In this document: positions 867 to 33,970 of the stretch, one piece after another
How the letters are laid out: every line of letters begins with the position of its first letter
Numbering within the stretch: position 1 is the first letter of the stretch
Assembly: GCA_963760375.1 (NCBI GenBank)
Contig: CAVXCS010000003.1
Coordinates: forward strand, 3,590-67,589
Direction: 5' to 3'
DNA from: an uncultured Flavobacteriaceae bacterium
GTDB lineage: Bacteria > Bacteroidota > Bacteroidia > Flavobacteriales > Flavobacteriaceae
DNA length: 64,000 nt
Translations under genes and position numbers: made by a program
Notes under the pieces: generated by a model
Databases searched by the model: none
Seen by the model: only the letters and a program-made list of their open reading frames with translations
Told to the model about the DNA's origin: nothing

Positions 867-1274
867 TCATCCACTTCTTCTTGGGCTAACGGTTCTGTTG
901 CTCCTTCCGCGGTTGGCATTGTGGTCTTCATGATAGCGTTGAATATTATCGTCTTGATAATCCCTGATGCGGGTATATCTCGTGCGTCTCAGATCGAAAT
1001 TCCGGTATCTGGGGGGCAACTCGTTGCGCCTCACCCACACGCCTCCATCCAGATAGAGATAGGTTCGGGCCGAAAGGTCATAATAGATGCTCAGTTCAGG
1101 AAAATAGATATAGCGAACCACTTCCAACCGATGGGGATAAAACCATGGCGGAGGGGGATGGCTGGGCCGTGATGAAATGATCACAGGACCGCAACCCACC
1201 AAAACCAATAGCAATAAATAGGGCATGAGCGATCTTATGCTCCTTAACGAAGATGTGTTTTCCATGGTCGACAT
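867..1274 (-). CDS. hypothetical lipoprotein
   Basis: 135-aa ORF with a signal peptide and lipobox (LLLLVLVGC), then a Pro/Arg/Tyr-rich region. No family recognised. Confidence 0.55.
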   Translation of the reverse strand: MSTMENTSSLRSIRSLMPYLLLLVLVGCGPVIISSRPSHPPPPWFYPHRLEVVRYIYFPELSIYYDLSARTYLYLDGGVWVRRNELPPRYRNFDLRRTRYTRIRDYQDDNIQRYHEDHNANRGRSNRTVSPRRSG

Positions 1275-1323: not shown

Positions 1324-1366
1324 TGATCTAAATCATTTTGGTCATGAATCATTTGTAATAATTTTG
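1324..1366 (+). promoter_or_regulatory. motif-B operator plus -7 box (promoter of 1406..1792)
   Basis: AATGATCTAAATCATT with core TGAY-N4-RTCA at 1324-1335. TTTG immediately follows. Perfect TAATTTTG at 1359-1366. The first T of the box is 29.5 bp from the palindrome centre. Confidence 0.7.
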
Positions 1367-1405: not shown

Positions 1406-1792
1406 ATGGAAACCGAAGTCATTTATAATTCGAATCTGCATTTTGAACATGAACAATGGAAAGGGGAACTGTACTTCTGGAAGGATGAGCTCAAATCATT
1501 CAATATCCGCTTGAGCGAATTGGTTACCCGATGGACAAAGCAAGAGGTCTTGAAACAGTTGGAGCATTTTCAGAACGAATTTATCCTCCATGGCGGGGTC
1601 ATCGACGATTTGTTGGAAACCATAGAAAAACATGAGACCCGTATCGCCGCCCAAAGTAAAACGGGGGTGGAGGTGATGGATACCCAATTGTTCAAGAAAC
1701 ACCTCGAATTCAGAGATCAAATGGAAACCCAAAGGCAGATCTATGCGGATCTCAAAAAAGATTTCTTCAAGTTCCTTACCAAGTACATGTAG
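1406..1792 (+). CDS. hypothetical helical protein, paralog family member 1
   Basis: 128-aa ORF. Its N-terminal E-x-W-x2-EL-x-FWKDEL-x2-F signature is shared with 4004..4411 and 62016..62468. Confidence 0.6.
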   Translation: METEVIYNSNLHFEHEQWKGELYFWKDELKSFNIRLSELVTRWTKQEVLKQLEHFQNEFILHGGVIDDLLETIEKHETRIAAQSKTGVEVMDTQLFKKHLEFRDQMETQRQIYADLKKDFFKFLTKYM

Positions 1793-4718: not shown

Positions 4719-4761
4719 TGACATAAATCATATCATTCGATTGGCAAATACATTACTTTTA
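4719..4761 (+). promoter_or_regulatory. motif-B operator plus -7 box (promoter of ytxH-like operon 4803..5749)
   Basis: TGACATAAATCA at 4719-4730 is nested in a longer inverted repeat, AATGATATGA(4712-4721)/TCATATCATT(4728-4737). TACTTTTA at 4754-4761 starts 29.5 bp from the centre. Confidence 0.65.
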
Positions 4762-4802: not shown

Positions 4803-5132
4803 ATGACAGACAATAGTGGAAACGTATTATTGGCGTTATTAACCGGTGCGGCCATAGGTGCCGGTATCGGAATTTTATATGCCCCGGACAAAGGATCTGA
4901 AACCCGTTCGAAAATCAAGCAAAAAGCGAAGGATGCAAAACACGACCTTACCGATCGCATTTCGCATGCCAAGGACGAACTGACCAAGACCGCCAAGGAA
5001 AAAAAGGACGAGTTCGAGCAAAAATTGGAGGACACCATTTCCCAGATGAGCTATAAGGCAGACGATATCATCGCCACTTTGGAGCACAAATTGGAAGAGC
5101 TCAAGAAAAAGAACGCCCAATTCCAGAAATAA
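4803..5132 (+). CDS. YtxH-domain protein
   Basis: An N-terminal TM with GAAIGAGIGILYAPDKGSETR, then a charged helical tail, is typical of the YtxH family. Confidence 0.75.
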   Translation: MTDNSGNVLLALLTGAAIGAGIGILYAPDKGSETRSKIKQKAKDAKHDLTDRISHAKDELTKTAKEKKDEFEQKLEDTISQMSYKADDIIATLEHKLEELKKKNAQFQK

Positions 5133-5489: not shown

Positions 5490-5749
5490 ACTACCACTAC
5501 AGCTCTTTCAAGGAAATCGATGAACGCCTTAGGATATTGGCCCTGCAACGGGAAATCAGCAAGGAGAGCCTAAAGCTGAACCTTTATTCTGCCAAAAGGG
5601 ATATATTTCCTTCCCATATTATCAGCGGATTGAGCGGTTCGCTCCAAAAATTGGTGCTCACTTGGGTGCTTAAAACAATGGTGGCCAAGTTTCGCAAGCC
5701 CAAGGAAAAAGAAGTTTCCGAACAAACCAAGGTCGATCAACTGAACTGA
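5486..5749 (+). CDS. hypothetical protein
   Basis: 87-aa ORF overlapping the previous stop by 4 nt (ATGA coupling). No family recognised. Confidence 0.45.
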   Translation: MNYHYSSFKEIDERLRILALQREISKESLKLNLYSAKRDIFPSHIISGLSGSLQKLVLTWVLKTMVAKFRKPKEKEVSEQTKVDQLN

Positions 5750-6807
5750 GCCACTTTTTTTAGGGCCTCTTTGTCTTTCAATATGATTTTTCTTCCCTGA
5801 TCGGTGGTGATCAATCCTTCATCCTTGAAATCGGACAAGGTGCGGATCGCGGTTTCGGTCGCGGTTCCGATCATCCCGGCAAAATCTTCCCTTGGGATCC
5901 CGACTCCATTATTCGCCCTATCCTGAACAATCCCTTTCTCGAACAACTGTAATAGTGCCTTGGCGGCCCTTTGCCGCACCGAAGCATATGCCATATCCAC
6001 CAGGTGCTCTTGAACATCGATCAAATTGGCCGACATCATGGTGATGAACTTCTGCGAAATCACTTGGTTGCTGAAAAGTAGGTTGGTGAATTCCTCTTTT
6101 GGAATGGCATACAGGTTGGCATCCTCAACCACTTTTGCCGTTTCAATATACCTTCCGTCGCTGTTGAGCAATGACAGTTGCCCTACGAAGTCGCCCGCAC
6201 TGTAGATGCCCGTAACGAATTCCTTCCCTGATTCAGTGCCCACATAGGTCTTTACCGTACCACTTTCGATGAGATAGAGGGCATGGGCACCATCCCCTTC
6301 CCAAAAAACGAATTCGTTTTTTTCATATTTTTTCAGATCGTGCGATTTGGAAAGACTTTCCAAATCGATATGATTAGAGGCCCCTTCGAGGAAGTTATTG
6401 ATGCCGGAAAGGTTTTTGGCTATTTCTGTTTTCAGGAAATCGCGCTTTTGAAGGCGGCTCTGTATGGCATCCAACAATTCCTGTTCTTCAAAGGGTTTGG
6501 TTAAATAATCATCTGCGCCGAGGTTCATCCCCTCACGGACATCGGCCCTACTGGTCTTTGCGGTTAAAAAAATAAACGGGACGCCCGCAGTACCGCCATT
6601 TTGGTTCAATTGGCGCAACACCGAATAACCATCCATTTCCGGCATCATGATATCACAGATCACAATGTCGGGCAAAAATTCAAACGCCATGGCGATACCG
6701 ATTTTGCCGTTTTCCGCCGTGGCCACTTCGTAATTGGCCAATCTTAGGATTTCTGCCGTATTTTCCCGCACATCCATGTTGTCTTCAATAAGCAGTACTT
6801 TTTGCAT
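5737..6807 (-). CDS. response regulator: REC + cNMP-binding + Crp/Fnr-type HTH (RR-Crp1)
   Basis: REC motifs (LLIEDN...DIVICDIMMPEMDG...LTAKT...GADDYLTKPF), a cNMP-binding beta-roll (FWEGDGAHALYLIESGTVK) and a C-terminal HTH (GTATETAIRTLSDFKDEGLI, about 5833-5895). Confidence 0.9.
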   Translation of the reverse strand: MQKVLLIEDNMDVRENTAEILRLANYEVATAENGKIGIAMAFEFLPDIVICDIMMPEMDGYSVLRQLNQNGGTAGVPFIFLTAKTSRADVREGMNLGADDYLTKPFEEQELLDAIQSRLQKRDFLKTEIAKNLSGINNFLEGASNHIDLESLSKSHDLKKYEKNEFVFWEGDGAHALYLIESGTVKTYVGTESGKEFVTGIYSAGDFVGQLSLLNSDGRYIETAKVVEDANLYAIPKEEFTNLLFSNQVISQKFITMMSANLIDVQEHLVDMAYASVRQRAAKALLQLFEKGIVQDRANNGVGIPREDFAGMIGTATETAIRTLSDFKDEGLITTDQGRKIILKDKEALKKVAQFS

Positions 6808-9343
6808 CTTCTTTTAAATTTAATGGAATTTCAATGGTAAAGGTGCTTCCCTTACCCACCTCACTTTCAAAATCGATGGTACCGCCCACCAGGTCGATGT
6901 ATTGCTTCACGATATGCAGGCCCAGTCCCGTACCTTGAATATTGGCCGCATTGGCGGCCCTAAAAAACCGATCGAACAGGTTTTTCTGCTCTGCTACCGG
7001 AATACCGATTCCCCGATCGATCACTTCGATTTTGGCACGGCCCCGTTCGCTCGACACCAGACAGGTGATTTCTTGATCCTCGTTCGAATATTTTATGGCA
7101 TTCGACAATAAGTTGTTGATCATATGGCCCAGCATCTTTTTATCGGAACAAGTGATGATTGGATCTGCGGACGTTTTCAAGACCAATTGCTGACCCTCTT
7201 TTTTGTTGATTTCCATCTCTTCCATCAAGGATTTGATATAAGAGGAAATATCAAAATATTCCGGTTTGGGCTTCACCTTGCCTTCTTCCAACTTGCTCAA
7301 GGAAAGGAAATCATTGAGAATGACCACCAAATTTTTGACGTTCGCTTTGATCCTGTCAACATGTTTCTCCCTTCTCTCCTCCTTACCAGGTTCATTTTGT
7401 TTGCCGATAAGAATGGCGGAGGAAAGGATGGCACTCAATGGGGTACGGAATTCATGGGAGGCCATCGATATGAAGCGCGATTTTAATTCGTTGAGTTCCC
7501 TTTCGCTGATCAGTGCCTTGAGCAATTCATCCTGTACCATTTTTTGATCGGTGATATTGCTATATACAAACAGGCCCCATACTATTTTGTCATCGGAATA
7601 GAGGGGAGTTGAATTGATCGAATAGACGTTTTCGTTGTATGTGATCTCATCGGTGGCATGTTCGCCGCTTAGGGTTTGAAGCACCAGGGCTTGGATTCTT
7701 TCGATTTGGGCCGTGGAAAATTCCGGGATATCCTCTAGGCGTTTTCCCTCCAAATCGCTCTTTTTTAGATGCAACCGCTCCAATTCTTCCCCTTCAACAT
7801 ACACAATTTCAAGATTTTGATTGAAGACGACAATGATACCTTTTGGAAAATTTTGGGCGATTGCCGAAATCAATGTTTGGCTCCTTAGCGCTTTGTCCTC
7901 AGCGATTTGGGTTTCCTTGATTTGATCTTCCAAATTAAGATTGCTCTCCTTCAATTGCTGCACCGTCGCATTCAGTTCCCCGGTACGTGCCCGTACTTGG
8001 TCTTCCAGGTTTTGGGTATATTTTTCCAATTTCCTTTGACTGGCCTCCAATTCGATTCCGATTTGATTTTGGTGGATGGCCAAAGCCGCCAGTTGTGAAA
8101 GATCGGCCATGATTTCCCTATCGGTTTTAAGCGGAATTTTAGGGGATTCACAATACACCGAAAAGGTACCCAGCACCTCTTGATTCTTTGAAATAATGGG
8201 TATTGACCAGCAAGATTTCAAGTTGTTTTCAAGGGCAGTTTCATGATAGGCCTTCCAATAGGGATCTTTTGCAAAATCGGGCACGAACACCTCTCTTTTG
8301 GTGTAGGCCGATACACCGCAGGAACACCCTTCGGGACCCACTGGCATTCCCTCCAAGGCTTTTTGCAAGGCCTTGGGCAAACTTGGGGCCGCCAATTGGT
8401 GCAAGGTGCCCTTTTTGTGGTCAAGAACCGTAATGCTCGCCATACAGCCCTGAAAATGCGCTTCTGCAGCCCTGACAATATAATTTGCAATGACTTTGAG
8501 GGGTTGGTCCATCGCGATTTTCTCCAAGATCCTTCGGATATCATCTTTAAGTTGCAGGGCCTTTTTCTCCTTGGTCACATCATGCTGTACGCCGATAAAA
8601 TGGGTCAGGTTTTGTTCTTGGTCATATACCGGGGTAATGGTGAGTTCGTTCCAGAACAGGGTGCCATCTTTGCGGTAATTTCGAAGTACCACCTTACAGT
8701 CGTTCCCTTTTTTGATGGCTTTTCGCAGTCTTTTCAAAGCGGGTTGATTTCGATCTCCGTTTTGTAAAAAGCGGCAGTTACGACCCAAAACTTCACTGTT
8801 TCGGTATCCCGTCATGCGGCTAAAGGCCGGGTTGCTATAGATAACGGGCATTTCGGGATCAAGCGCATCCGCTATCAAAATACCGTTGCCGGCAGCGTTC
8901 AGGGCCCTGTTGCGAACATCAAGGGAATTTTGTACCGATAGTGTATGGGCCACCGATTTGGCCATGGTCGATATTCCTTTGAAGGTATCATGGGTGCGGT
9001 TCACAAAGGCAAGCGCTATAGGTTGCTCTTTTTGGCGCAACGACACCAACTTGAGCTTCAAGTTCATAGGGTTGTCTTCTTTGTCATGGCCCACGAATTC
9101 AAGGCTGGCATCACCGTTGAGCTGTCGCAATTGGTCCAAGAGCGCCTTGCGATCGGCTTTTGCGATGTGGTCCACCAATTTTCGACCCGCCATTTGATTG
9201 GAGGCGTACCCGAATAAGTTCAAAAAGGAGGGATTGGCCATAACGATCTTGCTGTTCAAATCAAGAAGGCCGACCGCTTCCGAACCGTAGTCGAAGACGT
9301 GCTTAAAAATAACCGAATCTGTAATTTGTGCCATCATGTTCAA
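6785..9343 (-). CDS. PAS-LOV-GAF-PAS sensor histidine kinase (HK1)
   Basis: 852-aa ORF. The track start at 9343 is TTG; the first ATG is at 9337. It has a LOV signature GRNCRFLQ, a GAF-like middle region, HisKA (SHEFRTPL) and HATPase (GTGLGL...GKGSTF) motifs. It overlaps the RR gene by 23 nt. Confidence 0.9.
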   Translation of the reverse strand: MNMMAQITDSVIFKHVFDYGSEAVGLLDLNSKIVMANPSFLNLFGYASNQMAGRKLVDHIAKADRKALLDQLRQLNGDASLEFVGHDKEDNPMNLKLKLVSLRQKEQPIALAFVNRTHDTFKGISTMAKSVAHTLSVQNSLDVRNRALNAAGNGILIADALDPEMPVIYSNPAFSRMTGYRNSEVLGRNCRFLQNGDRNQPALKRLRKAIKKGNDCKVVLRNYRKDGTLFWNELTITPVYDQEQNLTHFIGVQHDVTKEKKALQLKDDIRRILEKIAMDQPLKVIANYIVRAAEAHFQGCMASITVLDHKKGTLHQLAAPSLPKALQKALEGMPVGPEGCSCGVSAYTKREVFVPDFAKDPYWKAYHETALENNLKSCWSIPIISKNQEVLGTFSVYCESPKIPLKTDREIMADLSQLAALAIHQNQIGIELEASQRKLEKYTQNLEDQVRARTGELNATVQQLKESNLNLEDQIKETQIAEDKALRSQTLISAIAQNFPKGIIVVFNQNLEIVYVEGEELERLHLKKSDLEGKRLEDIPEFSTAQIERIQALVLQTLSGEHATDEITYNENVYSINSTPLYSDDKIVWGLFVYSNITDQKMVQDELLKALISERELNELKSRFISMASHEFRTPLSAILSSAILIGKQNEPGKEERREKHVDRIKANVKNLVVILNDFLSLSKLEEGKVKPKPEYFDISSYIKSLMEEMEINKKEGQQLVLKTSADPIITCSDKKMLGHMINNLLSNAIKYSNEDQEITCLVSSERGRAKIEVIDRGIGIPVAEQKNLFDRFFRAANAANIQGTGLGLHIVKQYIDLVGGTIDFESEVGKGSTFTIEIPLNLKEDAKSTAY
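8573..8908 (-). other. LOV (flavin, blue-light) domain inside HK1
   Basis: GILIADA...PVIYSNPAFSRMTGY...GRNCRFLQ...RNYRKDGTLFWNELTITPV...FIGVQHDVT. The adduct-forming Cys codon is at 8774-8776. Confidence 0.85.
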
Positions 9344-9466: not shown

Positions 9467-9509
9467 CAAATGTATCATAGCTATCTCCGTATTAAAATGA
9501 TATTGGTCA
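9467..9509 (-). promoter_or_regulatory. motif-B operator plus -7 box (promoter of HK1/RR-Crp1 operon)
   Basis: AATGATATTGGTCAGC with core at 9498-9509. On the minus strand a perfect TACATTTG lies at 9474-9467, starting 29.5 bp from the centre. The operator is flanked by two copies of the palindrome ATAGCTAT (9477-9484, 9512-9519). Confidence 0.7.
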
Positions 9510-10517: not shown

Positions 10518-13166
10518 TTAGGATTTAGGGAAAAAGTTGCCGATCCGTTTGATGGACTGGGCCATGAGCAGCGAACCAAGTGCAAACAGCGCGATATACG
10601 AATATTGACTTAAGGTAAGGTGGGTCAAGGCGAGGGCTTCGGCAACAACGGGAATTACCGACACCGCAAAGGTCAAAAATGCACATAGCACAATAGCGGC
10701 CCAAACCCAAGGGTTGGCCGTGACCTCATTTTTGAAGAATGACCCCCCGCTTTTTGGAATATTGAAAAGATTGAGCAATTGGGCGAGTATTAAAGTGAAG
10801 AATGCCATATTATTGATCAAACCCGGTTCGAGCTTTAGGGTAAAGTAGCCGAAGGCGGTGATACCAAGTACGGCAGTGCTGATCGATAACCCATAGATCA
10901 ATATTGCATACCAATGCGCTGGTGTTAAAATGGGCTCATCGGGTTTTCTTGGAGGGGTTTGCATCAGTGTGGGATCGCCTTTACCAAGGCCCAAAGCAAG
11001 GGCGGGAAAAATATCGGTGATCAGGTTCAGGAACAAAATCTGTAATGGCAGCAAAGGGGAGGGGAGGTTGATCAAGGCGGCGATTCCCACGGAAACAATT
11101 TCGGCCAGATTGCTCGAAAGCAGGTATACCACAAACTGCCGAATGTTATGATAGATGACCCTGCCTTGTTGAATGGCCAACTCGATGGCCGTAAATTTAT
11201 CGTTCTTCAGGATCATATCGGCGGCCTCACGAGCCGCCTCGGTACCACGGATGCCCATGGCGATGCCAATATCGGCCTTTCGCAAAGCGGGAACATCGTT
11301 GATGCCGTCACCTATCATGGCCACCACATTGTTATTGGCTTGAAAGAATTGTATCAACTTCAATTTTTGTTCCGGGACCACCCTTGCAAAAACCACCGTA
11401 TTCATCAGGGCCGAGGTCATCTTGGTATCCAACGCAGCTTTGATCGGCAGTTCATTGCCATGCCTAACAAATCGATGGGCGTCATCTTTGGTCAAAAGGC
11501 CAATTTCCTGTGCTATTTTTATGGCGGTGCCCATATGGTCCCCAGTCATCATAACGACCCGTATCCCGGCTTTTTTGTAGACTTCGATTGTATGTTTTAC
11601 ATCTTGCCTGGCCGGGTCGATAAAGCCTATGACCCCCAAAAAGGTAAGGTCGTTCAAGATTGCATCCCTTTCCGGCTCCTCTTTGGAGACCCTGGAGGCG
11701 AATGCAATGGTACGCAATCCTTGGGAGGCCAGAGCATCCACCTTTGTCAACCAAGCTTCTTTTGAATTGAAGGCTTGGGCGGTATCCTTTTCGAGTATGG
11801 TATCACAGCATGCCACAATGCCCTCAAAGGCCCCTTTTACATAGGTATGGTAGGCATTTTGGCCCCGGTTCACGGTGGCCATCAATTTGCGATCGGTATT
11901 GAAGGGGAGCTGTTTTAATTCCACATTGTTTTTTTGGGCTTCTTTTGGGTCATAGCCGAGGTTGCTCGCAAAATCGATCAAGGCCTGATCTATGGTATCC
12001 CTGTGCGCATGTTCGTCGGCCAGGGCAACATCGTTGCAAAGCATACAGGCCATGATGATTTCTTGGTACGCACGGTTATCGACGGGCATTTCGGCCATGG
12101 ACTTGGTGTTGAGCCCGGTAATCGAACGCCCATCGTACAATAGGGTGTGTACCCTTAGCAGGTCTTCTGTTAAGGTACCCGTTTTATCGGTACAGATGAT
12201 GTTTGTAGCACCAAGGGTCTCTACCGCTTTGAGGTTCTTGATGATGAGCTGTTTTTTTGACAAGCGTACCATCCCCCTGGCCAGGGCGATCGTGGCAACG
12301 ATCGGTAGGCCCTCGGGTATCGTTGCAACGGCAAGGGCCAAAGCGGTCTCCAACATCAAAAAGAATGCTTTACCCTGAACATATCCGGTAATCATGATAA
12401 GTACGGCCAAAACCAGGGTCAACACGATCAACTTTTTGCTGAGCTTGTTGAGCTTCTTTTCGAGGGGGGTGCGCTCTTCGGTGGCCTCCATGGCCATTTG
12501 ATGGATTTTTCCCAGTTGTGTTCCCTTGCCGGTGGCGGTGACGATGGCTTTCCCGGTGCCACCGGTGACAACGGTACCCCTAAAAACCATGTTGGTTTGC
12601 CCGGTCAAAGGCGTTTTTTGCGATACTGCTGCGGTCCTTTTTTCGATGTCGACGCTTTCCCCGGTTAGGGCAGATTCCCTGACCAAAAGATTTTCTTGTG
12701 ACAGCAGACGGGCATCGGCCGTAACGATATTGCCCACATCGAGAAGAACGATATCTCCGGGCACCAACAAGGAATCGCGAATGCTGCAAATTTCCCCGGA
12801 TCTGATCACGCGGGCCATTGTCTGGCCCAGTTGACGTAACGATTCCAGGGAACGCACCGCCTGTAATTCCATAAAGTAACCGATGGCCACCGTGATCAAG
12901 ATCACAATGGCAATGGCCGATCCTTCGGCCCAATCCTCGAACAGGAAGGCCAAAACCGCGGCGGCACCTAAGATGTAAATAATGGGATCTGTGAACTGTT
13001 CGACAAGAAGGCGGCTCCTCTTTTTTGGCCTTGTTTCGGGCAGCTGATTATTGCCAAGTTGTGCGAGACGATTGGAGGCCTCTTCTTGGGTCAAGCCATA
13101 TTCCCCATCACTTTTTAAGTGTTGAACAACATCCAATATGGTCAGGGAGAATGGGTATTTGATCAT
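10518..13166 (-). CDS. cation-translocating P-type ATPase (type II, Ca/Mg-like)
   Basis: ICTDKTGTLT, MMTGDH and GDGINDVPAL motifs. The track ORF starts at a TTG at 13220; I prefer the ATG at 13166 (MIKYPFSLTILDVV...). Confidence 0.9.
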   Translation of the reverse strand: MIKYPFSLTILDVVQHLKSDGEYGLTQEEASNRLAQLGNNQLPETRPKKRSRLLVEQFTDPIIYILGAAAVLAFLFEDWAEGSAIAIVILITVAIGYFMELQAVRSLESLRQLGQTMARVIRSGEICSIRDSLLVPGDIVLLDVGNIVTADARLLSQENLLVRESALTGESVDIEKRTAAVSQKTPLTGQTNMVFRGTVVTGGTGKAIVTATGKGTQLGKIHQMAMEATEERTPLEKKLNKLSKKLIVLTLVLAVLIMITGYVQGKAFFLMLETALALAVATIPEGLPIVATIALARGMVRLSKKQLIIKNLKAVETLGATNIICTDKTGTLTEDLLRVHTLLYDGRSITGLNTKSMAEMPVDNRAYQEIIMACMLCNDVALADEHAHRDTIDQALIDFASNLGYDPKEAQKNNVELKQLPFNTDRKLMATVNRGQNAYHTYVKGAFEGIVACCDTILEKDTAQAFNSKEAWLTKVDALASQGLRTIAFASRVSKEEPERDAILNDLTFLGVIGFIDPARQDVKHTIEVYKKAGIRVVMMTGDHMGTAIKIAQEIGLLTKDDAHRFVRHGNELPIKAALDTKMTSALMNTVVFARVVPEQKLKLIQFFQANNNVVAMIGDGINDVPALRKADIGIAMGIRGTEAAREAADMILKNDKFTAIELAIQQGRVIYHNIRQFVVYLLSSNLAEIVSVGIAALINLPSPLLPLQILFLNLITDIFPALALGLGKGDPTLMQTPPRKPDEPILTPAHWYAILIYGLSISTAVLGITAFGYFTLKLEPGLINNMAFFTLILAQLLNLFNIPKSGGSFFKNEVTANPWVWAAIVLCAFLTFAVSVIPVVAEALALTHLTLSQYSYIALFALGSLLMAQSIKRIGNFFPKS

Positions 13167-13341
13167 TTTTTGGTCGCGATCGATAAGTTTTCCTTGGAAA
13201 GCCCTTTTAAATTTAGCCAAAATAACAATGCCCTCCTATCTTTCCCAAAGTAACATGGACGCTTTTTTTGGAATCGACAAAAGGGCATTTTAAAAATCTA
13301 TGGCAGCCCATTCGTGATGCTTGCCACAGTATTTCACGTCA

Positions 13342-13806
13342 TTATGAGATTTCAATCTTTTTGGACGGTTTTTTCTTGGCTTCTTCTTTTTTGGCCAGGT
13401 TAAAGCACAGAATGCCATCCTTGTAGGAGGCCTTGATGGCTTCTTCCTTTACGTTCTCAGGCAACTGCAACGACCTTTCAAAAGCATTGTAACTGAATTC
13501 CTGACGGGTATAGTCTTTTTCTTTCTCTTCTTTGGAGGTCGATTTTTCGGCCGAGATGTTCAAACAGCCATCGTCGATGGTCACATTGAAATCTTTTTTG
13601 GAGAAACCGGGTGCGGCCAGTTCAATTTCGAATTTTTCGTCGGTCTCTTTGATGTTCAGGGCTGGTTCTGAGGTTTTGCCGTTCCAAAAACGATCGGGCG
13701 GCATATTTCTGACCCAGTTGCGATTGTCGAAGAAATCATCGATATCAAAAAAGTCTTGAGGTACGAGATTTCCAAAAGGCCTTCTTCTAACTTTTACTAG
13801 TGACAT
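13342..13806 (-). CDS. Hsp20/alpha-crystallin small heat-shock protein
   Basis: 154 aa with an alpha-crystallin domain (FEIELAAPGFSKKDFNVTIDDGCLNISAEK...SYKDGIL). Confidence 0.9.
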   Translation of the reverse strand: MSLVKVRRRPFGNLVPQDFFDIDDFFDNRNWVRNMPPDRFWNGKTSEPALNIKETDEKFEIELAAPGFSKKDFNVTIDDGCLNISAEKSTSKEEKEKDYTRQEFSYNAFERSLQLPENVKEEAIKASYKDGILCFNLAKKEEAKKKPSKKIEIS

Positions 13807-13841: not shown

Positions 13842-13884
13842 CTAAAGTACGTACAGCGCCACCTCGGCAAAATGACCTAGGTCA
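13842..13884 (-). promoter_or_regulatory. motif-B operator plus -7 box (promoter of hsp20 / P-type ATPase)
   Basis: AATGACCTAGGTCAGG with core at 13873-13884. On the minus strand TTTG follows directly, and TACTTTAG lies at 13849-13842, 29.5 bp from the centre. Confidence 0.65.
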
Positions 13885-14026: not shown

Positions 14027-15218
14027 TTGAAATATATTACCCGAACGGTTTGGATCTTATCGTGCATCAGCCTGTTTACCGATATGGCCAGCGAAATGCT
14101 GTATCCCATCCTGCCCATCTATTTAAAGTCCATCGGTTTTTCGGTAGTATTGATCGGGGTACTCGAAGGCATTGCCGAGGCCACCGCCGGTTTGAGCAAG
14201 GGCTATTTTGGCAAAAGATCCGATGTTTCCGGCAAAAGGGTCCCCTTTGTTCAGTTGGGATATGCCCTGAGTGCGGTCTCCAAACCCATGATGGCCCTCT
14301 TTGTTTTTCCGTTATGGATCTTTTTTTCACGAACACTCGATCGGCTGGGAAAGGGGATCCGGACCGGGGCAAGGGATGCCCTGCTTTCCCAAGAGGCCAC
14401 GGAGCGGAACAAGGGAAAAATATTCGGACTGCACCGGGCCATGGATACCTTGGGCGCCGTCATCGGCCCCGCACTGGCCCTCTTGTACCTCTATTTCTTT
14501 CCGGAAGATTACAAAACCTTGTTTTTCATCGCCTTTGTGCCCGGGGTGCTGGCCGTTTTGACAAGTTCCTTACTGAAAGACCATAAAAAGATGCTGTCGG
14601 GAAAAGAAAAAAGACCGGTACCTTTTTTTTCATTTTTGGGCTATTGGAAGCAGAGTCCCCCAATCTACCGCAAATTGGTCTATCGGTCTGCTGGCGTTTG
14701 CCCTGATCAACAGTTCCGATGTTTTTCTGTTATTGAAGGCCAAGGAAGCCGGGCTGGATGACACGGCAGTGGTGGGGGTGTATATTTTTTATAACCTGGT
14801 ATATGCTGCGTTCTCCTTTCCTGTGGGCGCCATGGCAGATAATATCGGGTTGCGGACCATGTTCATCATCGGCCTGGGCTTGTTTGCCATCGTTTATTTT
14901 GGGATGGGGCTAAGTACCGATCCCTACATCGTAGCGGCCATGTTTTTCCTCTATGGCATCTATGCGGCAGCCAACGAAGGGATTTCAAAGGCATGGATCA
15001 GCAATATTTCCGAAAAAAAGGACACTGCGACCGCCATTGGAACCTATGCGGGGTTCCAGAGTATTTGCACCATGGTGGCCAGTGCATCGGCTGGACTTAT
15101 TTGGTTCCAATTTGGGGCAAGCATGGCATTTATGTTCACCGGGGCGATGACCTTGGCCATCATAGGTTACTTCCTTGTTTTTGTGCTGCCCGTTAAAAGC
15201 AACCTGCAGCAAGGTTAA
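14027..15218 (+). pseudogene. MFS transporter interrupted by a +1 frameshift near 14681
   Basis: ORFs 14027..14761 and 14733..15218 are the N- and C-terminal halves of one MFS protein. Dropping T14681 gives ...YRKLV-IGLLAFALINSSDVFLLLKAKEAG... Confidence 0.65.
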
Positions 15219-15243: not shown

Positions 15244-15899
15244 CTATAATTTCACCCCGAAGGCCAAATCTCCCGCATCCCCCAAACCAGGAATGATGTA
15301 TCCCTTGGCGGTGAGTTTATCGTCGATGGCGGCAATCCAGAGGTGGGTGTTTTTCGGAAAGATTTTCTTGACGTAGGCAACCCCGCTTTTCGAACCGATG
15401 ACGGAAACGATATGGATCTGTTTGGGCACCCCGTGCGACTTTAAGGCCTCATATACATTTTCCAGGGTTTTGCCGGTCGCCAACATGGGATCGGTCAGGA
15501 TCAAGGTCTTCCCTCCCAAGGAAGGGGCCGCAAAATATTTTACGATCACCTCAAATGCGTCTTCATCCTCTTTATGCTGTCGATACGCCGAGATGAAGGC
15601 ATTTTCCGCCCGATCAAAATAATGCAGTAGCCCCTCATGCAGTGGCAGGCCGGCCCTTAATACCGAACACAGCACCAAGCGCATCGGTGGGCAAGGACAT
15701 TTCCTTGGTACCGAAAGGGGTCTGGATGGTTTTGTTGCCTGTAGCTGAGGGCCTTGCTCATTTCATAGCCCAGCACTTCCCCGATCCGTTCAATATTACG
15801 ACGGAAACGCATGGCATCCTTTTGTATTTCGATATCCCTGATCTCTGCGATGAATTGGTTCAACAGGGAATTTCCATCCCCAAAATAGTGTACGGTCAT
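15244..15899 (-). pseudogene. upp: uracil phosphoribosyltransferase with two frameshifts
   Basis: ORF 15657..15899 (RFRRNIERIGE) and ORF 15244..15684 (LCSVLRAGLP...DPMLATG...IIPGLGDAGD) are in different frames. The conserved linker KTIQTPFGTKEMSLPTD is readable only in the third frame, between about 15734 and about 15683. Confidence 0.7.
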
Positions 15900-16700: not shown

Positions 16701-19700
16701 TTATTCGTAATTTTTCCCTTCTATCATATAATAGATCAAAGGGACCATTATCAAGGTGAGGATGGTCGAAACGATGGCCCCTGCGACCAAGGAAATGGCC
16801 AACCCTTGAAATATGGGGTCGAACAGGATGATGGAGGCCCCGATGACCACGGCACCCGTCGTCAATAATATGGGGGTGGTTCGAACCGCACCTGCATCGA
16901 TGATCGCTTGTTTTATAGGAATTCCTTCTTTTAACCTTATTTCGATGAAATCGATGATCAGGACCGAGTTGCGCACCATGACCCCCGCAAGGGCGATCAT
17001 TCCTATGAAGGAGGTAGCGGTAAAGAAGGCCCCGAAAAGCCAATGGCCCAAGACGATCCCGATCAATGAAAGGGGTATGGCCGCCATCATAACGATCGGG
17101 GTCTTCAGGTTTTGGAACCAACCGACGATCAACATATAGATCACCACGATGACCACCATAAAAGCGATGCCAAGATCTCTAAAGACCTCCAGGGTAATCT
17201 GCCATTCTCCATCCCATTTTACCGTGAAGTCGCTTTCATCGGAGGGTTGTTCCATGTAAGATTCCTGAACCGTATACCCTTTTGGCAGCACCAATGTTTT
17301 TAATTTTTCATTCATTCCCAAAATGGCATACACCGGACTTTCCAAGGCCCCGGCCATGTCGGCGGTCAGGTAAACGACCCTTTTTTGATCCTTGCGGTAA
17401 ATGGTTTTCTGCAGGCTTGCCGTGTTCACGCTGACCAGGTCGACCACTGGAACCATGGTTCCATTTACCGATCTTATTTTGATGTTCTGGATATCCGCCA
17501 ATGAGCTCTTTTCCGCATCGTTCAAGGAAAGTACAATCCCGACCGATTCATTCGCTGTTGCATCATGAAGACCGGAAACCGGTATTTCCCTTAAAATGGA
17601 GGTCAGGGCGGTCACGATTTGTTGGGGGGCCACGCCGTTTAACATAGCTTTTTGCTTATCGACTTCCAAACGGTACTCGGTCTGCGGGGCTTCGACCATC
17701 CAATCGACATCCACAATATCGGCAGTACCCTGCAAAATAGTCTTCACCTGTTCGGCCACTTTGATCTGTTCCCCATAATCGGGTCCATAAATCTCGGCAA
17801 CAATGGTGGAGAGTACTGGGGGGCCGGGCGGCACTTCGACCACTTTAACATTGGCCCCATATTTTTGGCCGATTCTTTGTACTTCAGGGCGTACCTCCTT
17901 GGCAATGTCATGGCTTTGGGAATTTCGATCTTCTTTGTGCAGCAAGTTTACCTGGATATCGGCCATATTGCTTCCGCCCCGCAGGTCATAATGACGCACC
18001 AGGCCATTGAAGGTGATCGGCGCCGAGGTGCCGATGTAGTTTTGATAATCCACTACTTCGGGCCGGGAAGCCAGATAGAGGGAAATTTCCTTAGTCACCA
18101 TTGCGGTCCTTTCCAGGGTGGTGCCTTCGGGCATGTCCACCACGATTTGGAATTCGTTCTTATTATCGAAAGGCAACATTTTAACGGCCACCGTTTTTGT
18201 AAAGAACATGAGGATCGATCCAAGCAAGAGCACCACGGTAATGAGGATAAAGCCCCACCGTTTTGTCTTGTTGTCCAACAAAGGTTTTTCAATTTTATTA
18301 TAAATTCTATAAATGAATCCGGATTCAAAACTTTTTTCTTCCTTATGCCCCTTATCGTCTTTTTCACGCAACAAATGGTAGCCCAAATAGGGCGTAACCG
18401 TTAGCGCCACGAACAAAGAGAGCAACATGGCGATTGAAGCGCCGATTGGCATTGGGCTCATGTAGGGTCCCATCATTCCCGATACGAATGCCATGGGCAA
18501 TATGGCAGCGATGACGGTGAAAGTGGCCAAGATGGTGGGGTTGCCGACCTCGTTGATCGCAAAGAGTGCGGCCTGTTTAAACGGCAGGCGTTTCATCTTA
18601 AAGTGCCGGTGCATGTTTTCCGCAATGATGATACTATCGTCAACAACAATACCCACGACAAAGACCAACGCAAAAAGCGTGATACGGTTCAGGGTATAGT
18701 CGAACATATAATAACTGAACAAAGTAAGTGCGAAGGTCAAGGGCACTGAAAAGAAAACGACAAGCCCCCCGCGCCATCCCATGGCAAGCATCACCAAAAT
18801 GGTGACCGCCAGGATGGCAACCCCCAAATGCAACAACAGTTCGCCCACCTTGTCCGAAGCCGTTTCTCCGTAATTCCTTGAAACTTCGATATGAACCTCA
18901 GCAGGTATCAGGTGCTTTTTTAAATCTGTGACCCGTTCCAATATCTTCTCGGAAATCTTCATGGCATCGGCCCCTTTTACCTTCGCGATCGAGAGGGTCA
19001 CGGCCGCATATTCGGAACCATATTCGGAATACTTTTCGTGGTTCTGGCCATACCCAAAAGACACATAACTTTTAGGGGTGGCAGGTCCGTCCTGTATCGT
19101 TGCCACCTGTTTCAGATACACCGGGAGGTTCCGGTTCACCCCGACTACCAGATTTTCTACATCATCGACCGTTTCCAAAAAGTCGCCGGTGGTCAAGAGA
19201 TATTCGGTATCGTTTTTTACAAAACTCCCGGATTGGGCCTGTTGGTTGTTGGCCTGGATCATCTGCATAATGCCAAGGGCATCGATCCCATTTTCCGCCA
19301 TCCTATCTTTGTCCAGAATCACCTTCAATTCGCGATTTCTGCCCCCGATGGTCTTGGTCATGGCAACATTCTTTATTTTTTCCACCTCATTTTCAAGTTC
19401 CCCGGCAATTTGTTTCAGTTGGAAATCGTCATAGGAATCGCTCCAAAGGGTGATGCCCAACATGGGCACATCGTCTATGGAACGTGTTTTCACCATGGGT
19501 GCATAGATGCCATTGACAAACATATCGTCATGCTTCATCAATTCATTGTAGAGGTTCACATAGGAGCGTTCGGTGTCTTCCCCTACATAGAACTGCACGA
19601 TGATCATGGCCTGGCCGTTCATGGCCATGGTATGGAGATGTTCCACGCCTTTGATATCGGAAAGGATCTTTTCCAAGGGTTTGACCACCCTGTTCTCCAC

Positions 19701-19889
19701 TTCTTCGGGACTCGCGCCCGGATAGCCCACCATCACATCGGCCATGGGCACGATGATCTGGGGCTCTTCTTCCCTGGGGATCAAAAAAGAGCTGTACACC
19801 CCAATGATCATTAAGACGACCATCAACAAAAGGGTCAACTTCGAGTTGATGAATGCACTGGCTATTTTTCCTGATATTCCTTCGTTCAT
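16701..19889 (-). CDS. RND efflux transporter permease (AcrB/CzcA superfamily)
   Basis: About 1060-aa 12-TM protein with typical RND N-terminus MNEGISGKIASAFINSKLTLLLMV. Start moved to the ATG at 19889 to avoid overlap with the adaptor gene. Confidence 0.9.
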   Translation of the reverse strand: MNEGISGKIASAFINSKLTLLLMVVLMIIGVYSSFLIPREEEPQIIVPMADVMVGYPGASPEEVENRVVKPLEKILSDIKGVEHLHTMAMNGQAMIIVQFYVGEDTERSYVNLYNELMKHDDMFVNGIYAPMVKTRSIDDVPMLGITLWSDSYDDFQLKQIAGELENEVEKIKNVAMTKTIGGRNRELKVILDKDRMAENGIDALGIMQMIQANNQQAQSGSFVKNDTEYLLTTGDFLETVDDVENLVVGVNRNLPVYLKQVATIQDGPATPKSYVSFGYGQNHEKYSEYGSEYAAVTLSIAKVKGADAMKISEKILERVTDLKKHLIPAEVHIEVSRNYGETASDKVGELLLHLGVAILAVTILVMLAMGWRGGLVVFFSVPLTFALTLFSYYMFDYTLNRITLFALVFVVGIVVDDSIIIAENMHRHFKMKRLPFKQAALFAINEVGNPTILATFTVIAAILPMAFVSGMMGPYMSPMPIGASIAMLLSLFVALTVTPYLGYHLLREKDDKGHKEEKSFESGFIYRIYNKIEKPLLDNKTKRWGFILITVVLLLGSILMFFTKTVAVKMLPFDNKNEFQIVVDMPEGTTLERTAMVTKEISLYLASRPEVVDYQNYIGTSAPITFNGLVRHYDLRGGSNMADIQVNLLHKEDRNSQSHDIAKEVRPEVQRIGQKYGANVKVVEVPPGPPVLSTIVAEIYGPDYGEQIKVAEQVKTILQGTADIVDVDWMVEAPQTEYRLEVDKQKAMLNGVAPQQIVTALTSILREIPVSGLHDATANESVGIVLSLNDAEKSSLADIQNIKIRSVNGTMVPVVDLVSVNTASLQKTIYRKDQKRVVYLTADMAGALESPVYAILGMNEKLKTLVLPKGYTVQESYMEQPSDESDFTVKWDGEWQITLEVFRDLGIAFMVVIVVIYMLIVGWFQNLKTPIVMMAAIPLSLIGIVLGHWLFGAFFTATSFIGMIALAGVMVRNSVLIIDFIEIRLKEGIPIKQAIIDAGAVRTTPILLTTGAVVIGASIILFDPIFQGLAISLVAGAIVSTILTLIMVPLIYYMIEGKNYE

Positions 19890-19899
19890 CTTTTTTGTT

Positions 19900-20979
19900 T
19901 TATTGGATGGATATCTTGGCCCCGTTGTACAACTTGCCTTCCGCGGAAACGATATACTGCTCGCCCGCATTCAGGCCAGACAGCACCTCTATTTGATCGC
20001 CATATATTTTGCCCAAACGGAGCCATCTAAGAAGGGCCTTGTTTTGGTCACTAACTGTATAAACTCCTTTTAAACCGCCGCTTGTAACGATGGCCGATCG
20101 TGGTATGAGCACCAAGGAAGGGGCGTCGGATTTAGTACTGATAGGAATTTGGACCGTTGTAAACATTCCGGAAAGGAGTTTAACATCGGTTTTGTCAACC
20201 GCTGCCTTAACCAAATATTGTCCGCCAGTATTTTTGGCGGAAGCACTTACCTCTTTCAGTTTGCCCTTGACCGATGTACCCAATGATTTGATCAATACTT
20301 CAACGGTGGCGTCTGATTTGATCTTGGAGATTTCGCTTTCGGGCACCATGGCGACGACCTCAAAGACTCCGGGAGATTCGAGGGCCAACAAGGGCATCCC
20401 TGGATTGGCCATATCCCCGACTTCTGTAAATTTACCGGTGATCACACCAGCAAAAGGGGCCGTAATGTTGGCATAGTCAAATTGTGCGTTGATCTCATTT
20501 TTCATTTGGTTCGCCGCTTCCAATCTTGCCTTTGCCATTTCAAATCGTGTGGTCATATCGTCCATTTCCTTTTGGGAGGCACTATTTTCGGCAAAGAGGT
20601 TTTTAAAACGTTCATAATCTTTTTCTGCGTTAGCGTAGGCCGCTTTGGCCTCCGTAATTCCGGCATTGACCTGTGCGCGTTTGGCCTGTAGATCGGTATT
20701 GTTGATCGACACCAACAGTTGTCCTTTTTTGACCTTATCACCCACATTGACGTAGATCTTGCTCACTTGGCCCATCATCCGGGTGCTTAATTCGGCACTG
20801 TTTACAGCCTGTATCTTGCCGCTTACGCTTAGGAAACCGCTGCTATGGTTTTCGGTTATCCCGCTTATGGTCACTGGTACCGCATTGGCATCGTCAGCGT
20901 TGGTTTTAGTGCCCTCGCCGCTGCAGCTGGAAAGCACCAACATAGCAGTCCCAAAAAGGGTTGTATACAATTTTGTCAT
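19900..20979 (-). CDS. RND efflux periplasmic adaptor (MFP) lipoprotein
   Basis: Lipobox LVLSSC, biotinyl-lipoyl-like and coiled-coil segments (VKKGQLLVSINNTDLQAKRAQ). ATG at 20979 preferred over the GTG at 21000. Confidence 0.85.
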   Translation of the reverse strand: MTKLYTTLFGTAMLVLSSCSGEGTKTNADDANAVPVTISGITENHSSGFLSVSGKIQAVNSAELSTRMMGQVSKIYVNVGDKVKKGQLLVSINNTDLQAKRAQVNAGITEAKAAYANAEKDYERFKNLFAENSASQKEMDDMTTRFEMAKARLEAANQMKNEINAQFDYANITAPFAGVITGKFTEVGDMANPGMPLLALESPGVFEVVAMVPESEISKIKSDATVEVLIKSLGTSVKGKLKEVSASAKNTGGQYLVKAAVDKTDVKLLSGMFTTVQIPISTKSDAPSLVLIPRSAIVTSGGLKGVYTVSDQNKALLRWLRLGKIYGDQIEVLSGLNAGEQYIVSAEGKLYNGAKISIQ

Positions 20980-21071
20980 GATTTTGTTTTTATAGTTCAC
21001 TTTAGGCTATTTAAGCGTTTGTTTCTTCTGAATGTTCAAATTTTTGGTGGTATTGTAAAAGGGCTATGGCG

Positions 21072-22376
21072 TTATTCCTTTATTAAAAATTCCAAATAGG
21101 CCAGTGCATAATTATGCTGGAATATGGTAGCATAATATTCCAGTTGTTTCTGACTGTATTGTGATTCTGCCATAAGAAGGTCATTGGTCTTTTCCAGACC
21201 TTGTTCAAAGCGATTGCTGCGGATACGCAACGACTCCTCGGATTGTTGCAAGGCCAATTGGGTCAGTTTTAATTTGTTATTGGCATCTTGAAGCCCTCTT
21301 TTGGCCTTGTTGAGTTCCAGTTGGCTTTCCGCCCTATATTGCTTTAACTGAAATCTTGATTTTTCAAATTCGGCCTTGCTCTTTTGTGCCCGGCCGAAAC
21401 GCTTGCTGCCCTCGAAAAGGTTCCACTTCAATTCTGCCCCGAAGAGATAGCCGTTCGCGGCGCCTTGGAATATTTCGTCGTCGTGCAGCTCGTAAGTGCC
21501 AAAGGCGTTCAAGCGGGGCAAAAAGGACATTTGGTCGGCCTTGTACATTTGTTTATAGGCTTCCGATGCGGCGTTCAAGGCCTGGATATCGTTTCTGTTC
21601 TCCGGCAAGCCTTCCACCTTAAGTTCTTGGTTCACGACCATTAGGGAATCGCTGGGCTTTAAGATTTGATCATTGTGGTCATCCATCAGAACGGACAAAT
21701 AATTCGAGGCATTCAGGATGTTGCTCTTGGCATACTGCAGCTGATTATCTATTTCGGTTGCCCGTACCTCAACCGACAGGAGATCTGATTTCTGCAAATA
21801 GCCTTGTCGAAAGTTGTTATTGGCGATACGCATGTTTTCCATGGCGGTCGCTTTGGTCTTTTCCAGAACTTCAACCGTTTTATAGGCCAATTGCAATTGC
21901 ATATAGGCCTTTTCGACTTCCAAGCCAATATATTCTTGGGTGCGTTCCGCTTGTAGGGCCGTGGCATCCCATTTGGCCTTGGCCGCCTTTCTTTGGTATA
22001 TGCCGTCGAAGTTCAACAGGGGTTGCTGTACTTCCATCCTCGTGGCGAAATCCTCGATTTGTCGAGGCGCATTTAATGAAGCAGGATCAAAATCGGCTTG
22101 GGTCAGTATGGCCTGGTTGAGTTTCGACCCAAAGGCCATCAAAGGGTTCGTAGTGGCGATACCGGTATGTGAGATACTGATATTGGGCAACAAGACGGCA
22201 TTGGTCTGGTTGTAGTCGCCCTTGGCCATCAGCACCTCCTGTTGCGACATTTTAAGGGTGCCATTGCCCGTTTTCACCTTGTCCATCACTTCAGTCTTTG
22301 AAATCAAAACGGTTTCCTGTGCTGACATTGACAGGGAAAGAATTGGTAAGGCAAACAGGAACATTATATTTTTCAT
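21072..22376 (-). CDS. TolC-family outer membrane efflux protein
   Basis: 434 aa with a signal peptide and two TolC-type coiled-coil repeats. It is first in the tolC-MFP-RND operon. Confidence 0.85.
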   Translation of the reverse strand: MKNIMFLFALPILSLSMSAQETVLISKTEVMDKVKTGNGTLKMSQQEVLMAKGDYNQTNAVLLPNISISHTGIATTNPLMAFGSKLNQAILTQADFDPASLNAPRQIEDFATRMEVQQPLLNFDGIYQRKAAKAKWDATALQAERTQEYIGLEVEKAYMQLQLAYKTVEVLEKTKATAMENMRIANNNFRQGYLQKSDLLSVEVRATEIDNQLQYAKSNILNASNYLSVLMDDHNDQILKPSDSLMVVNQELKVEGLPENRNDIQALNAASEAYKQMYKADQMSFLPRLNAFGTYELHDDEIFQGAANGYLFGAELKWNLFEGSKRFGRAQKSKAEFEKSRFQLKQYRAESQLELNKAKRGLQDANNKLKLTQLALQQSEESLRIRSNRFEQGLEKTNDLLMAESQYSQKQLEYYATIFQHNYALAYLEFLIKE

Positions 22377-28724: not shown

Positions 28725-28746
28725 CATTGCAAAAAGGTTCAAAAAA

Positions 28747-33944: not shown

Positions 33945-33970
33945 TTTATTATAATTTTTGATTTATAGGT

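Follow-up and report, generated by a model that had tools for sequence, protein, structure and literature searches.

The 64,000-nucleotide stretch from an uncultured marine Flavobacteriaceae bacterium analyzed here (the window) carries two pairs, each comprising one sensor histidine kinase and one response regulator, HK1-RR1 and HK2-RR2, which together with a recurrent palindromic operator form the subject of this work (coordinates in Table 1). An earlier note, made from the letters alone, had described the pairs as paralogous, with regulators that join a receiver (REC) to a cyclic-nucleotide-type beta-roll and a Crp-type helix-turn-helix (HTH), and all four open reading frames (ORFs) were found where it had placed them. 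Each regulator gene has its kinase gene directly upstream, with HK1 and RR1 overlapping by 23 nt, and a same-strand kinase is directly upstream of approximately 75 of 81 regulator genes across the loci compared.

Domains and residues of the two pairs

A Pfam hidden Markov model search gave all three modules in both regulators, each above its gathering threshold: Response_reg (E-values of 3e-29 for RR1 and 7e-29 for RR2), cNMP_binding (9e-21 and 1e-18) and HTH_Crp_2 (5e-15 and 1e-12). The proposed whole-length similarity is also confirmed, as RR1 and RR2 align from end to end with 42% identity (E 2e-97), and the recognition helices quoted for them, TATETAIRTLS and IATETLIRTLS, both occur in the translations. 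The AlphaFold (AF2) model of RR1, with a pLDDT of 76, consists of the receiver, a long helix running from alpha5 into the linker, the beta-roll, a long C-helix and the winged HTH. In Foldseek searches only the Crp half was matched, with TMt values of 0.8–0.89 to MtbCRP, CAP and FNR, and a PDB search gave no entry covering both the REC and the Crp modules. The beta-roll, C-helix and winged HTH by which the Crp/FNR superfamily is recognized are thus seen in Pfam and Foldseek alike.

Residue conservation was followed in 83 closer members of the family, from 80 genomes, and in 136 diverse representatives at 35–49% identity. The acidic pocket, phospho-acceptor Asp, Thr/Ser and Lys expected of a REC domain are all present as E8/D9, D52, T/S82 and K104, which are invariant in 83/83 closer members; among the 136 diverse members, 130 retain D52 and 130 K104, while at least 130 retain E8/D9 and T/S82. 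The receiver of this family looks, by its residues, fully functional. In CRP and FNR the residues reading the TGA core are E181/R185 and E209/R213, respectively, and their counterparts E318 (135 of 136 diverse members) and R322 (136 of 136) are nearly invariant, which fits a half-site with a TGA core and bears out the FNR/CRP-like recognition pair (E-x3-R) that had been pointed out. An FNR-type N-terminal Fe-S cysteine cluster was looked for in the RR1/RR2 family and is not present: there is one Cys in RR1 and there are two in RR2, two being also the median of the family, and the N-terminus is the receiver. No NCBIfam model reaches its cut-off for these regulators, with scores of 70–77 bits vs. 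266 for CRP, 66–71 vs. 228 for Fnr and 72–76 vs. 300 for FixK.

HK1 and HK2 share a HisKA/HATPase core with 46% identity over 244 residues (E 6e-64) and differ in their N-terminal sensor regions; the sequence strings quoted earlier for paralogous kinase halves with different sensors are present in both. The identity of the sensors, LOV in HK1 and haem-PAS in HK2, is new relative to that description. The second PAS domain of HK1 is a canonical LOV domain (E 1e-40 vs. solved LOV proteins such as 7r5n and many others) in which GRNCRFLQ is intact, so that both the PAS fold and the GXNCRFLQ flavin-cysteine motif are found, and 37 of 39 orthologous kinases retain the photoactive Cys. The scores of HK1 fall short of the NCBIfam cut-offs of YtvA_fam (155 vs. 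250) and BluLightHisKinLov (141 vs. 450), and HK1 also carries a GAF and two further PAS domains. Going by these features, HK1 most likely reports blue light through the LOV flavin domain, in addition to further inputs through GAF and the two PAS domains. The two LOV kinases that have lost the photoactive Cys (loci L021 and L039) adjoin RR1 orthologues and read GKNGRFLQ and GKNTHFLQ at the motif, with the rest of the domain kept.

With E-values of approximately 1e-15, the first PAS domain of HK2 is a match to the RmFixL, BjFixL and E. coli DosP haem domains. H66 aligns to the proximal haem His (BjFixL H200) and R86 to BjFixL R220, so that the proximal His and the FG-loop/G-beta Arg of a FixL-type haem-PAS are both in place, and the proximal His is retained in 32 of 34 orthologous haem-type kinases. 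HK2 is not a FixL in the full sense, as its partner is a REC-Crp protein rather than FixJ and its sens_FixL_Rhizob score is 107 bits vs. a cut-off of 850. Through its FixL-like haem-PAS domain HK2 most likely signals the level of oxygen or of some other diatomic gas. Pfam detected neither a transmembrane nor a signal-peptide domain in HK1 or HK2, which suggests that both are soluble, as would suit the sensing of light and gas.

A phased operator and the proposed mechanism

The palindromic core TGAYNNNNRTCA occurs 24 times in the window, compared to 4.5 ± 2.1 expected (0 of 100 shuffles reach 24), and 18 of the 24 sites lie in the approximately 12% of the window that is non-coding. The sites at 51095 and 56908 are true palindromes, TGATATAAGTCA and TGATATTTATCA, and the symmetrized 12-bp consensus is A-TGAY-N4-RTCA-T, whose flank reads A at 26 of 36 half-sites and T at none. 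The recognition helices had been likened to that of FNR: the fit to a TGAY half-site core stands, while the flanks are A-TGAY...RTCA-T and not those of the FNR/FixK box TTGAT-N4-ATCAA. The extended form TTGAY-N4-RTCAA is not enriched in the window (10 occurrences vs. 12.7 expected, with one mismatch allowed), and the canonical box was rejected as the operator on this ground and on that of the flank. The regulators were likewise rejected as FixK proper, given their fused receiver, the unenriched box and the FixK model score reported above.

The relation of the operator to the promoter is more specific still. An exact −7 box, TAnnTTTG, starts 23 nt after the 12-mer at nine window sites; because the two strands of the window together hold only 47 copies of the box, approximately 0.02 such coincidences are expected by chance. 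Most other intergenic sites have a 5-of-6 match to the box at the same offset. With the composite motif defined as TGAYNNNNRTCA-N23-TANNTTTG (operator, 23 nt, −7 box), we find in 80 regulator-centered loci from other genomes that the exact box stands at offset 23 for 118 of 479 palindromes, compared to mostly 0–3 and at most 9 at other offsets. Phased sites are carried by 46 of these 80 loci, and the phase is identical in the LOV, haem and other locus groups. The 23-nt spacers are unrelated in sequence, which indicates independent promoters instead of copies of one element and led us to reject the idea that the phasing arises from a repeated promoter cassette. Across 13 aligned orthologous HK1 promoters nothing is invariant apart from the half-sites of the operator, one flank T and the −7 box. 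A regulatory RNA in the HK1 leader was dismissed, as the leader of approximately 115 nt is not conserved in these 13 promoters and the window has no Rfam match.

For CRP and FNR, a site centered at −41.5 is the classic Class II activator position. At mapped start sites of Flavobacterium psychrophilum the −7 box occupies −12 to −5 (PMC9723704), which together with the 23-nt spacing would place the center of the palindrome at −41.5. The promoter-proximal flank TCA-TTT constitutes a partial substitute for the −33 element.

From the computed domains, residue conservation, enrichment, phasing, target conservation and operon linkage we infer DNA binding, phosphotransfer, the signals sensed and the mechanism of dimerization. 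We consider it reasonably probable that the haem-PAS and LOV kinases phosphorylate D52 and that the regulators bind A-TGAY-N4-RTCA-T at −41.5 to activate a dormancy/general-stress regulon, with the LOV pair itself under positive control. In this mechanism the CheY-like receiver would replace the usual sensory input of a Crp/FNR-type transcription factor. The soluble kinase encoded directly upstream would phosphorylate Asp52 and, via the long alpha5/linker helix, phosphorylation would turn the Crp module into a DNA-binding dimer. The dimer would then bind the palindrome and provide Class II activation of sigma-A promoters that have a good −7 box and only a T-tract in place of a −33 element. The regulon would comprise tandem Usp proteins, the ribosome hibernation factor HPF, Hsp20, YtxH, PfkB, the M50-CBS protease, P-type ATPases and the LOV operon.

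Insulation, ligand input and operator ownership

The two pairs could instead be functionally separate, HK1 acting on RR1 only and HK2 on RR2 only, with each regulator holding its own subset of sites (RR2, for example, the adjoining Usp cluster). Each regulator is co-operonic with one kinase, and in distant taxa the targets of haem-type loci are mostly Usp genes and a 130-aa protein. Comparing 39 LOV-partnered with 27 haem-partnered regulators, we also find eight positions that separate the groups: 191 and 210 in the beta-roll, 258, 266 and 270 in the C-helix, and 279, 309 and 313 in or near the HTH. However, none of them lies in REC, where the two groups share one alpha1 docking face (R14-E15-N16-T17-A18); the DHp alpha1 helix is nearly identical between LOV-type and haem-type kinases, and REC is the module best conserved between the group consensus sequences (78% identity vs. 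48–55% for the others). The two locus types are also alike in phase and in their mix of TGAC and TGAT half-sites, and the base-contacting E318 and R322 are identical. A partition of sites between the paralogs through the degenerate Y/R position was rejected, as LOV-type and haem-type loci do not differ there. On balance, we regard functional separation as unlikely. The same docking surfaces in both groups make cross-phosphorylation between the pairs plausible from the sequence comparison, and the earlier proposal that two differently sensing kinases feed one operator family is supported by the shared operator, phase and half-site mix and by docking residues that do not distinguish the groups. 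The differences in the C-helix might keep RR1 and RR2 as separate homodimers, and both pairs probably act on one shared dormancy/general-stress regulon.

The pairs do differ in how their own operons relate to the operator. LOV-kinase operons have an upstream operator in 23 of 33 scorable loci, with 22 of the 23 phased toward the kinase, whereas haem-kinase operons have none in 19 of 26 loci and one phased toward the kinase in only 3 of 26. The LOV pair is thus most likely a member of the regulon, by positive feedback or by feed-forward from the haem pair, while the phylum-wide haem pair is not activated through a phased operator. The 54166 site, the only one adjoining HK2 and assigned to the divergent gene 53708..54112 (Table 1), lies also at approximately −29.5 from a putative leaderless HK2 promoter, whose box TAATTTTG (54189..54196) is the only −7-like box before HK2 and whose predicted start is the A of the ATG. 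An operator in this position would repress, suggesting a negative autoregulation of the haem pair that we propose with low confidence. The same 30-bp spacing occurs in Pricia antarctica (L022).

It is also important to consider whether the regulators are true dual-input devices, in which a small ligand of the beta-roll, a cyclic nucleotide or another, is needed together with phosphorylation. The earlier note had leaned this way; its architecture, its operator chemistry and its converging kinases stand, and its cyclic-nucleotide input does not. cNMP_binding is well above its Pfam threshold, the fold resembles that of cAMP-bound CRPs at the TMt values given above, a signature Y220-x-E222-(T/S/N)-A224 is conserved in the family along with G209 in the cassette region, and Arg219 of RR1 would fit the position of CRP R82 after a one-residue alignment shift. 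R219 is nonetheless peculiar to RR1, with T the commonest residue in close relatives, and the cAMP phosphate-binding cassette (CRP E72, R82 and S83, E. coli numbering) was not found across the family: in the 83 close and 136 diverse members the equivalent of E72 is Q, Y, F, H or L, and those of R82-S83 are Tyr or P/S/V/T followed by variable residues. Among the diverse members E is also seen at the R82 position. Many Crp/FNR proteins, FixK among them, use the beta-roll structurally only. With the cassette missing family-wide, cyclic-nucleotide input to RR1/RR2 is unlikely on residue grounds, and we rejected cAMP or cGMP as a second input by default; another ligand in the beta-roll is possible. 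The dual-input device as a whole appears to us quite improbable.

Equally doubtful is the idea that the palindrome belongs to another Crp/FNR protein, either the stand-alone Crp3 of the window or one encoded elsewhere, with the fused regulators binding something else. Crp3 lies downstream of the operator-flanked M50-CBS gene, which is readable as autoregulation, and among 80 Crp3-centered metagenome loci, none with a fused regulator within 10 kb, there are 21 phased sites. These sites are nevertheless scattered, never consistently before Crp3, and approximately four times rarer than in regulator-centered loci (0.23 vs. 0.87 per 10 kb), with 1.5% of −7 boxes phased compared to 8.8%. Conversely, a Crp3 homologue is found in only 1 of the 80 regulator-centered loci, although phased sites occur in more than half of them, and the LOV-kinase/regulator operon has a phased operator in 22 of 33 loci. 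The recognition helix of Crp3, HTSRVVISRLL, has Val at the position of CRP E181/FNR E209, and E318 and R322 are retained in nearly every fused regulator. Helix chemistry, distribution and the reciprocal 80-locus set all disfavor Crp3 as owner of the operator. Possibly Crp3, which has a cysteine-rich motif DTCAMTLTCCLG, regulates redox or sulfur functions from a different operator of its own. It adjoins a sulfur-type cluster (26347..34868) that encodes a SoxA-like cytochrome c, an OprD-like porin, an SQR-like flavoprotein, a Tll0287-like protein, a rhodanese, an MBL-rhodanese and a TauE exporter.

Several points weigh against the proposed phosphorylation-driven Class II activation. The link between operator and regulator consists of co-localization, autoregulation and helix chemistry, and the loci were picked by the presence of a regulator, which builds some of the enrichment near regulators into the sample. 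The Crp3-centered set, in which 21 phased sites remain, reduces the worry over this selection but does not remove it, and ownership of the operator by a Crp/FNR protein encoded elsewhere in the genome is possible. The position of −41.5 relies on a distance between start site and box taken from another flavobacterium. Residues 125–147 of the linker are of low confidence in the single-chain AF2 model, and the conserved Y220-x-E222-(T/S/N)-A224 could be a ligand site. The distal Arg of FixL is present in only 13 of the 34 haem-type kinases, so that ligand discrimination may differ from that of FixL. Finally, the literature gave no binding, phosphotransfer or expression data for any member of the family.

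The proposed regulon, its parallels and its meaning

Targets in the window were assigned from the direction of the −7 box at each site (Table 1).

Table 1. Regulators, kinases and operator sites of the window. Positions are those of the window.
Feature	Position	Strand	Description	Basis
RR1	5737..6807	−	356 aa; REC 1–120, helical linker, cNMP-type beta-roll approximately 158–236, C-helix 248–274, Crp-type winged HTH 277–353	Pfam, AF2, Foldseek
RR2	55817..56869	+	350 aa; paralog of RR1, same REC, beta-roll and Crp-HTH architecture	Pfam, alignment
HK1	6785..9343	−	852 aa; PAS, LOV, GAF, PAS, HisKA, HATPase_c	Pfam
HK2	54201..55724	+	507 aa; haem-type PAS, PAS, HisKA, HATPase_c	Pfam
Crp3	34939..35571	−	Stand-alone Crp-family protein, 210 aa; downstream of M50-CBS gene	Pfam
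HK1-RR1 operon promoter	9467..9509	−	Operator TGACCAATATCA 9509..9498, 23-nt spacer, −7 box TACATTTG 9474..9467	
Operator TGATAAATGTCA	54166..54177 (region 54135..54177)	−	Predicted at −41.5, with −7 box TAGATTTG 54142..54135 of gene 53708..54112 (−)	
Operator TGATATTTATCA	56908..56950	+	23 nt, then TACATTTG; predicted to drive tandem-Usp gene 56998..57831	
Operator TGATAATTATCA	57855..57897	+	23 nt, then TACTTTTG; predicted to drive Usp 58042..58893, probably also Usp 58835..59764 and 59772..60614	
Operator TGATATAAGTCA	51095..51137	+	23 nt, then TATTTTTG; predicted to drive HPF 51159..51461 and tandem Usp 51476..52318	
DUF2267 gene	50588..51064		Divergent from the 51095 site; weak box, 4 of 6	
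Operator TGATAATTATCA	36710..36752	+	Exact −7 box toward PfkB 36775..37740	
36710 site, other direction			5-of-6 box toward M50-CBS protease 35575..36660 and Crp3	
Operator TGATATAGGTCA	24257..24299	−	Exact −7 box toward DUF6799 gene 23547..24218	
Operator TGACCTAGGTCA	13873..13884	−	5-of-6 box toward Hsp20 13342..13806	
Operator TGACATAAATCA	4719..4730	+	5-of-6 box toward YtxH 4803..5132 and next two small genes	
Operator TGATCTAAATCA	1324..1335	+	Exact box toward 128-aa gene 1406..1792; 5-of-6 box toward 867..1274 (−)	
Operator TGACCTGGGTCA	60975..60986	−	Exact box toward 60652..60927 (−); 5-of-6 box toward ROK glucokinase 61045..62019	
Weaker candidate operator	34045..34056	−	5-of-6 box toward MBL-rhodanese gene 32529..33944	
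Weaker candidate operator	47519		Toward 47606..47899	
Weaker candidate operator	48672		Toward 48071..48580 (−)	
Weaker candidate operator	62532		Toward 62016..62468 (−)	

Directly downstream of the Hsp20 gene, on the same strand, lies a P-type ATPase gene (10518..13220); a second one (44476..46980) has no clearly phased site upstream. Coding density is low in the approximately 1.1 kb at 46980..48071, which contains operator copies at 47411 and 47519 and the gene for a 97-aa Zn_ribbon_2 protein (47606..47899). For the gene of a 134-aa protein (53708..54112) the operator is predicted to be centered exactly at −41.5, with a leader of 18 nt, and the genes for a DeoC aldolase (53061..53708) and a purine nucleoside phosphorylase (52355..53053) come after it, which means that nucleoside salvage may belong to the regulon. 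Neither the 128-aa nor the 134-aa target protein has a Pfam, NCBIfam or PDB match.

The stress island also holds a complete RND efflux operon (16701..22376, minus strand) with an AcrB-like pump, an HlyD-like adaptor and an outer-membrane factor; it has no operator and is probably a bystander. An MFS transporter gene seems to be split into overlapping plus-strand ORFs in different frames (14027..14761 and 14733..15218), and a uracil phosphoribosyltransferase ORF (15244..15899, minus strand), with a small ORF just upstream, is missing the first approximately 66 profile positions; both may reflect frameshifts, pseudogenes or sequencing errors.

Exact phased sites are seen repeatedly across genomes before YtxH (19 loci), the LOV-kinase operon (13), the 128-aa protein (13), patatin (9), Usp (8) and Hsp20 (8); the counts for YtxH and Hsp20 are of other genomes. 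The 128-aa protein, among the best conserved targets, is a phased one at 12 other loci, making a cluster of 13 with the window that spans LOV-type and haem-type systems. P-type ATPase and PfkB are also phased targets in other genomes, and occasional targets look, by their sequence features only, like BON-domain, Dps-like and peroxiredoxin-like proteins. As far as sequence comparison can tell, the targets most likely form a dormancy/stress regulon conserved across genomes. A gene for an ABC-permease-like protein of approximately 260 aa, which from its sequence may be MlaE-like, is a phased target in five Crp3-centered metagenome loci (L118, L122, L128, L138 and L151) and also in L033; its recurrence means that membrane lipid maintenance may be another conserved part of the regulon.

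One parallel is the DosS/DosT-DosR system of Mycobacterium tuberculosis, in which a haem-sensing kinase and a response regulator likewise control Usp, Hsp20, pfkB, P-type ATPase and metalloprotease genes; we take its hspX to be the alpha-crystallin Hsp20 and Rv0079 to be HPF-like. The published DosR set contains seven USPs, the P-type ATPase ctpF, pfkB and the zinc metalloprotease Rv2625c (PMC7753917). In contrast to the system described here, the output of DosR is of the NarL/LuxR type and its operator differs, haem sits in GAF instead of PAS domains in DosS and DosT, and there is no light input.

The FixL-FixJ-FixK oxygen pathway of rhizobia and Caulobacter resembles the present system in its haem-PAS kinase with conserved proximal His and in the proposed route from receiver phosphorylation to a ligand-less Crp/FNR-type activator on a palindrome that has a TGA core and a spacer of 4 bp. 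Among the Crp-type NCBIfam models, that of Caulobacter FixK matches RR2 best (75.7 bits, far below the cut-off of 300). Here, however, receiver and Crp module are in one polypeptide, so that the FixJ step (LuxR-type HTH) and the transcriptional induction of fixK would be skipped, and the operator flanks are not those of TTGAT/ATCAA. FixK regulons typically include respiratory oxidases, whereas the targets here are stress and dormancy genes, and in the window no operator lies next to a gene for an oxidase or for nitrogen fixation.

As in Class II activation by E. coli CRP and FNR, we find a beta-roll, C-helix and winged HTH, a helix Glu/Arg pair and a palindrome predicted to be centered at −41.5 and to overlap the upstream promoter element; in place of a cAMP cassette or Fe-S Cys cluster the input is the fused receiver, and the promoters are of the Bacteroidota sigma-A type with the TAnnTTTG −7 box. 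There is also a resemblance to LOV-fed stress responses, among them the alphaproteobacterial LOV kinases with PhyR/EcfG and B. subtilis, where the LOV photoreceptor YtvA feeds sigma-B, in that an NCRFLQ LOV domain lies upstream of a stress regulon that includes YtxH. A preprint on Erythrobacter (bioRxiv 10.1101/641647) places its general stress response under light control. The output in our case is a two-component Crp-type activator and not a partner-switching sigma-factor cascade. The Burkholderia cenocepacia lxa locus, presented in two papers as a USP-rich genomic island induced by low oxygen (PMC6127331, PMC12973609), is similarly rich in USPs when compared by description only, while phylum and regulators differ.

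The fused family is large, with about 1,624 clusters at 50% identity (E ≤ 1e-30), almost all full-length at approximately 350 aa, and thousands of 90%-identity clusters, all with the three Pfam domains. Relatives occur in at least 556 species genomes and, among the matches listed, nearly all are labelled Bacteroidota (Flavobacteriaceae, Cytophagales, Chitinophagaceae, Sphingobacteriales, Saprospiraceae, Vicingaceae and Weeksellaceae), with one metagenome-assembled genome (MAG) binned as Comamonadaceae. The window has its closest relative in an uncultured Flavobacteriaceae MAG, with 94% identity for RR1. Both paralogs are carried by many genomes, at times on a single contig. The haem-type pair extends across the phylum, and in a sample biased toward RR1 relatives the LOV-type pair is found mostly in Flavobacteriaceae. 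Database names are generic (“response regulator”, “CRP-like cAMP-binding protein”), and no curated family name was found for fused REC-Crp regulators. In the literature searched, including a survey of the CRP/FNR superfamily (PMC3590769), no description of the architecture or the regulon was found, although a catalogue mention is possible. In the RR1/RR2 system the two-component design is combined with a putative Class II activator of the Crp/FNR type, whose regulon is unstudied.

Bacteroidota are dominant in many habitats of the sea, the soil and the gut. To our knowledge they have no RpoS, SigB or EcfG system, and no mechanism is established for their general stress or dormancy response, of which no description was found in the literature searched. 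We tentatively suggest, as a broader reading that we hold less firmly than the mechanism above, that the fused Crp family could be the missing master regulator of this response, with several uninsulated, cytoplasmic kinases (haem for oxygen, LOV for light, GAF/PAS for others) feeding a DosR-like Class II regulon. The system may be a duplicated two-component system that is uninsulated at the phosphotransfer step. If true, it would represent a compaction of the pathway, in which the logic of FixL-FixJ-FixK is collapsed into two proteins with a one-protein FixJ-plus-FixK, and a case of convergent evolution with the mycobacterial DosR regulon. The circuit on offer consists of a regulator family, a 12-bp operator with exact promoter geometry, a list of conserved targets and two plausible inputs, oxygen and blue light, and the motif of operator, 23 nt and TAnnTTTG can be utilized for regulon prediction in any Bacteroidota genome.

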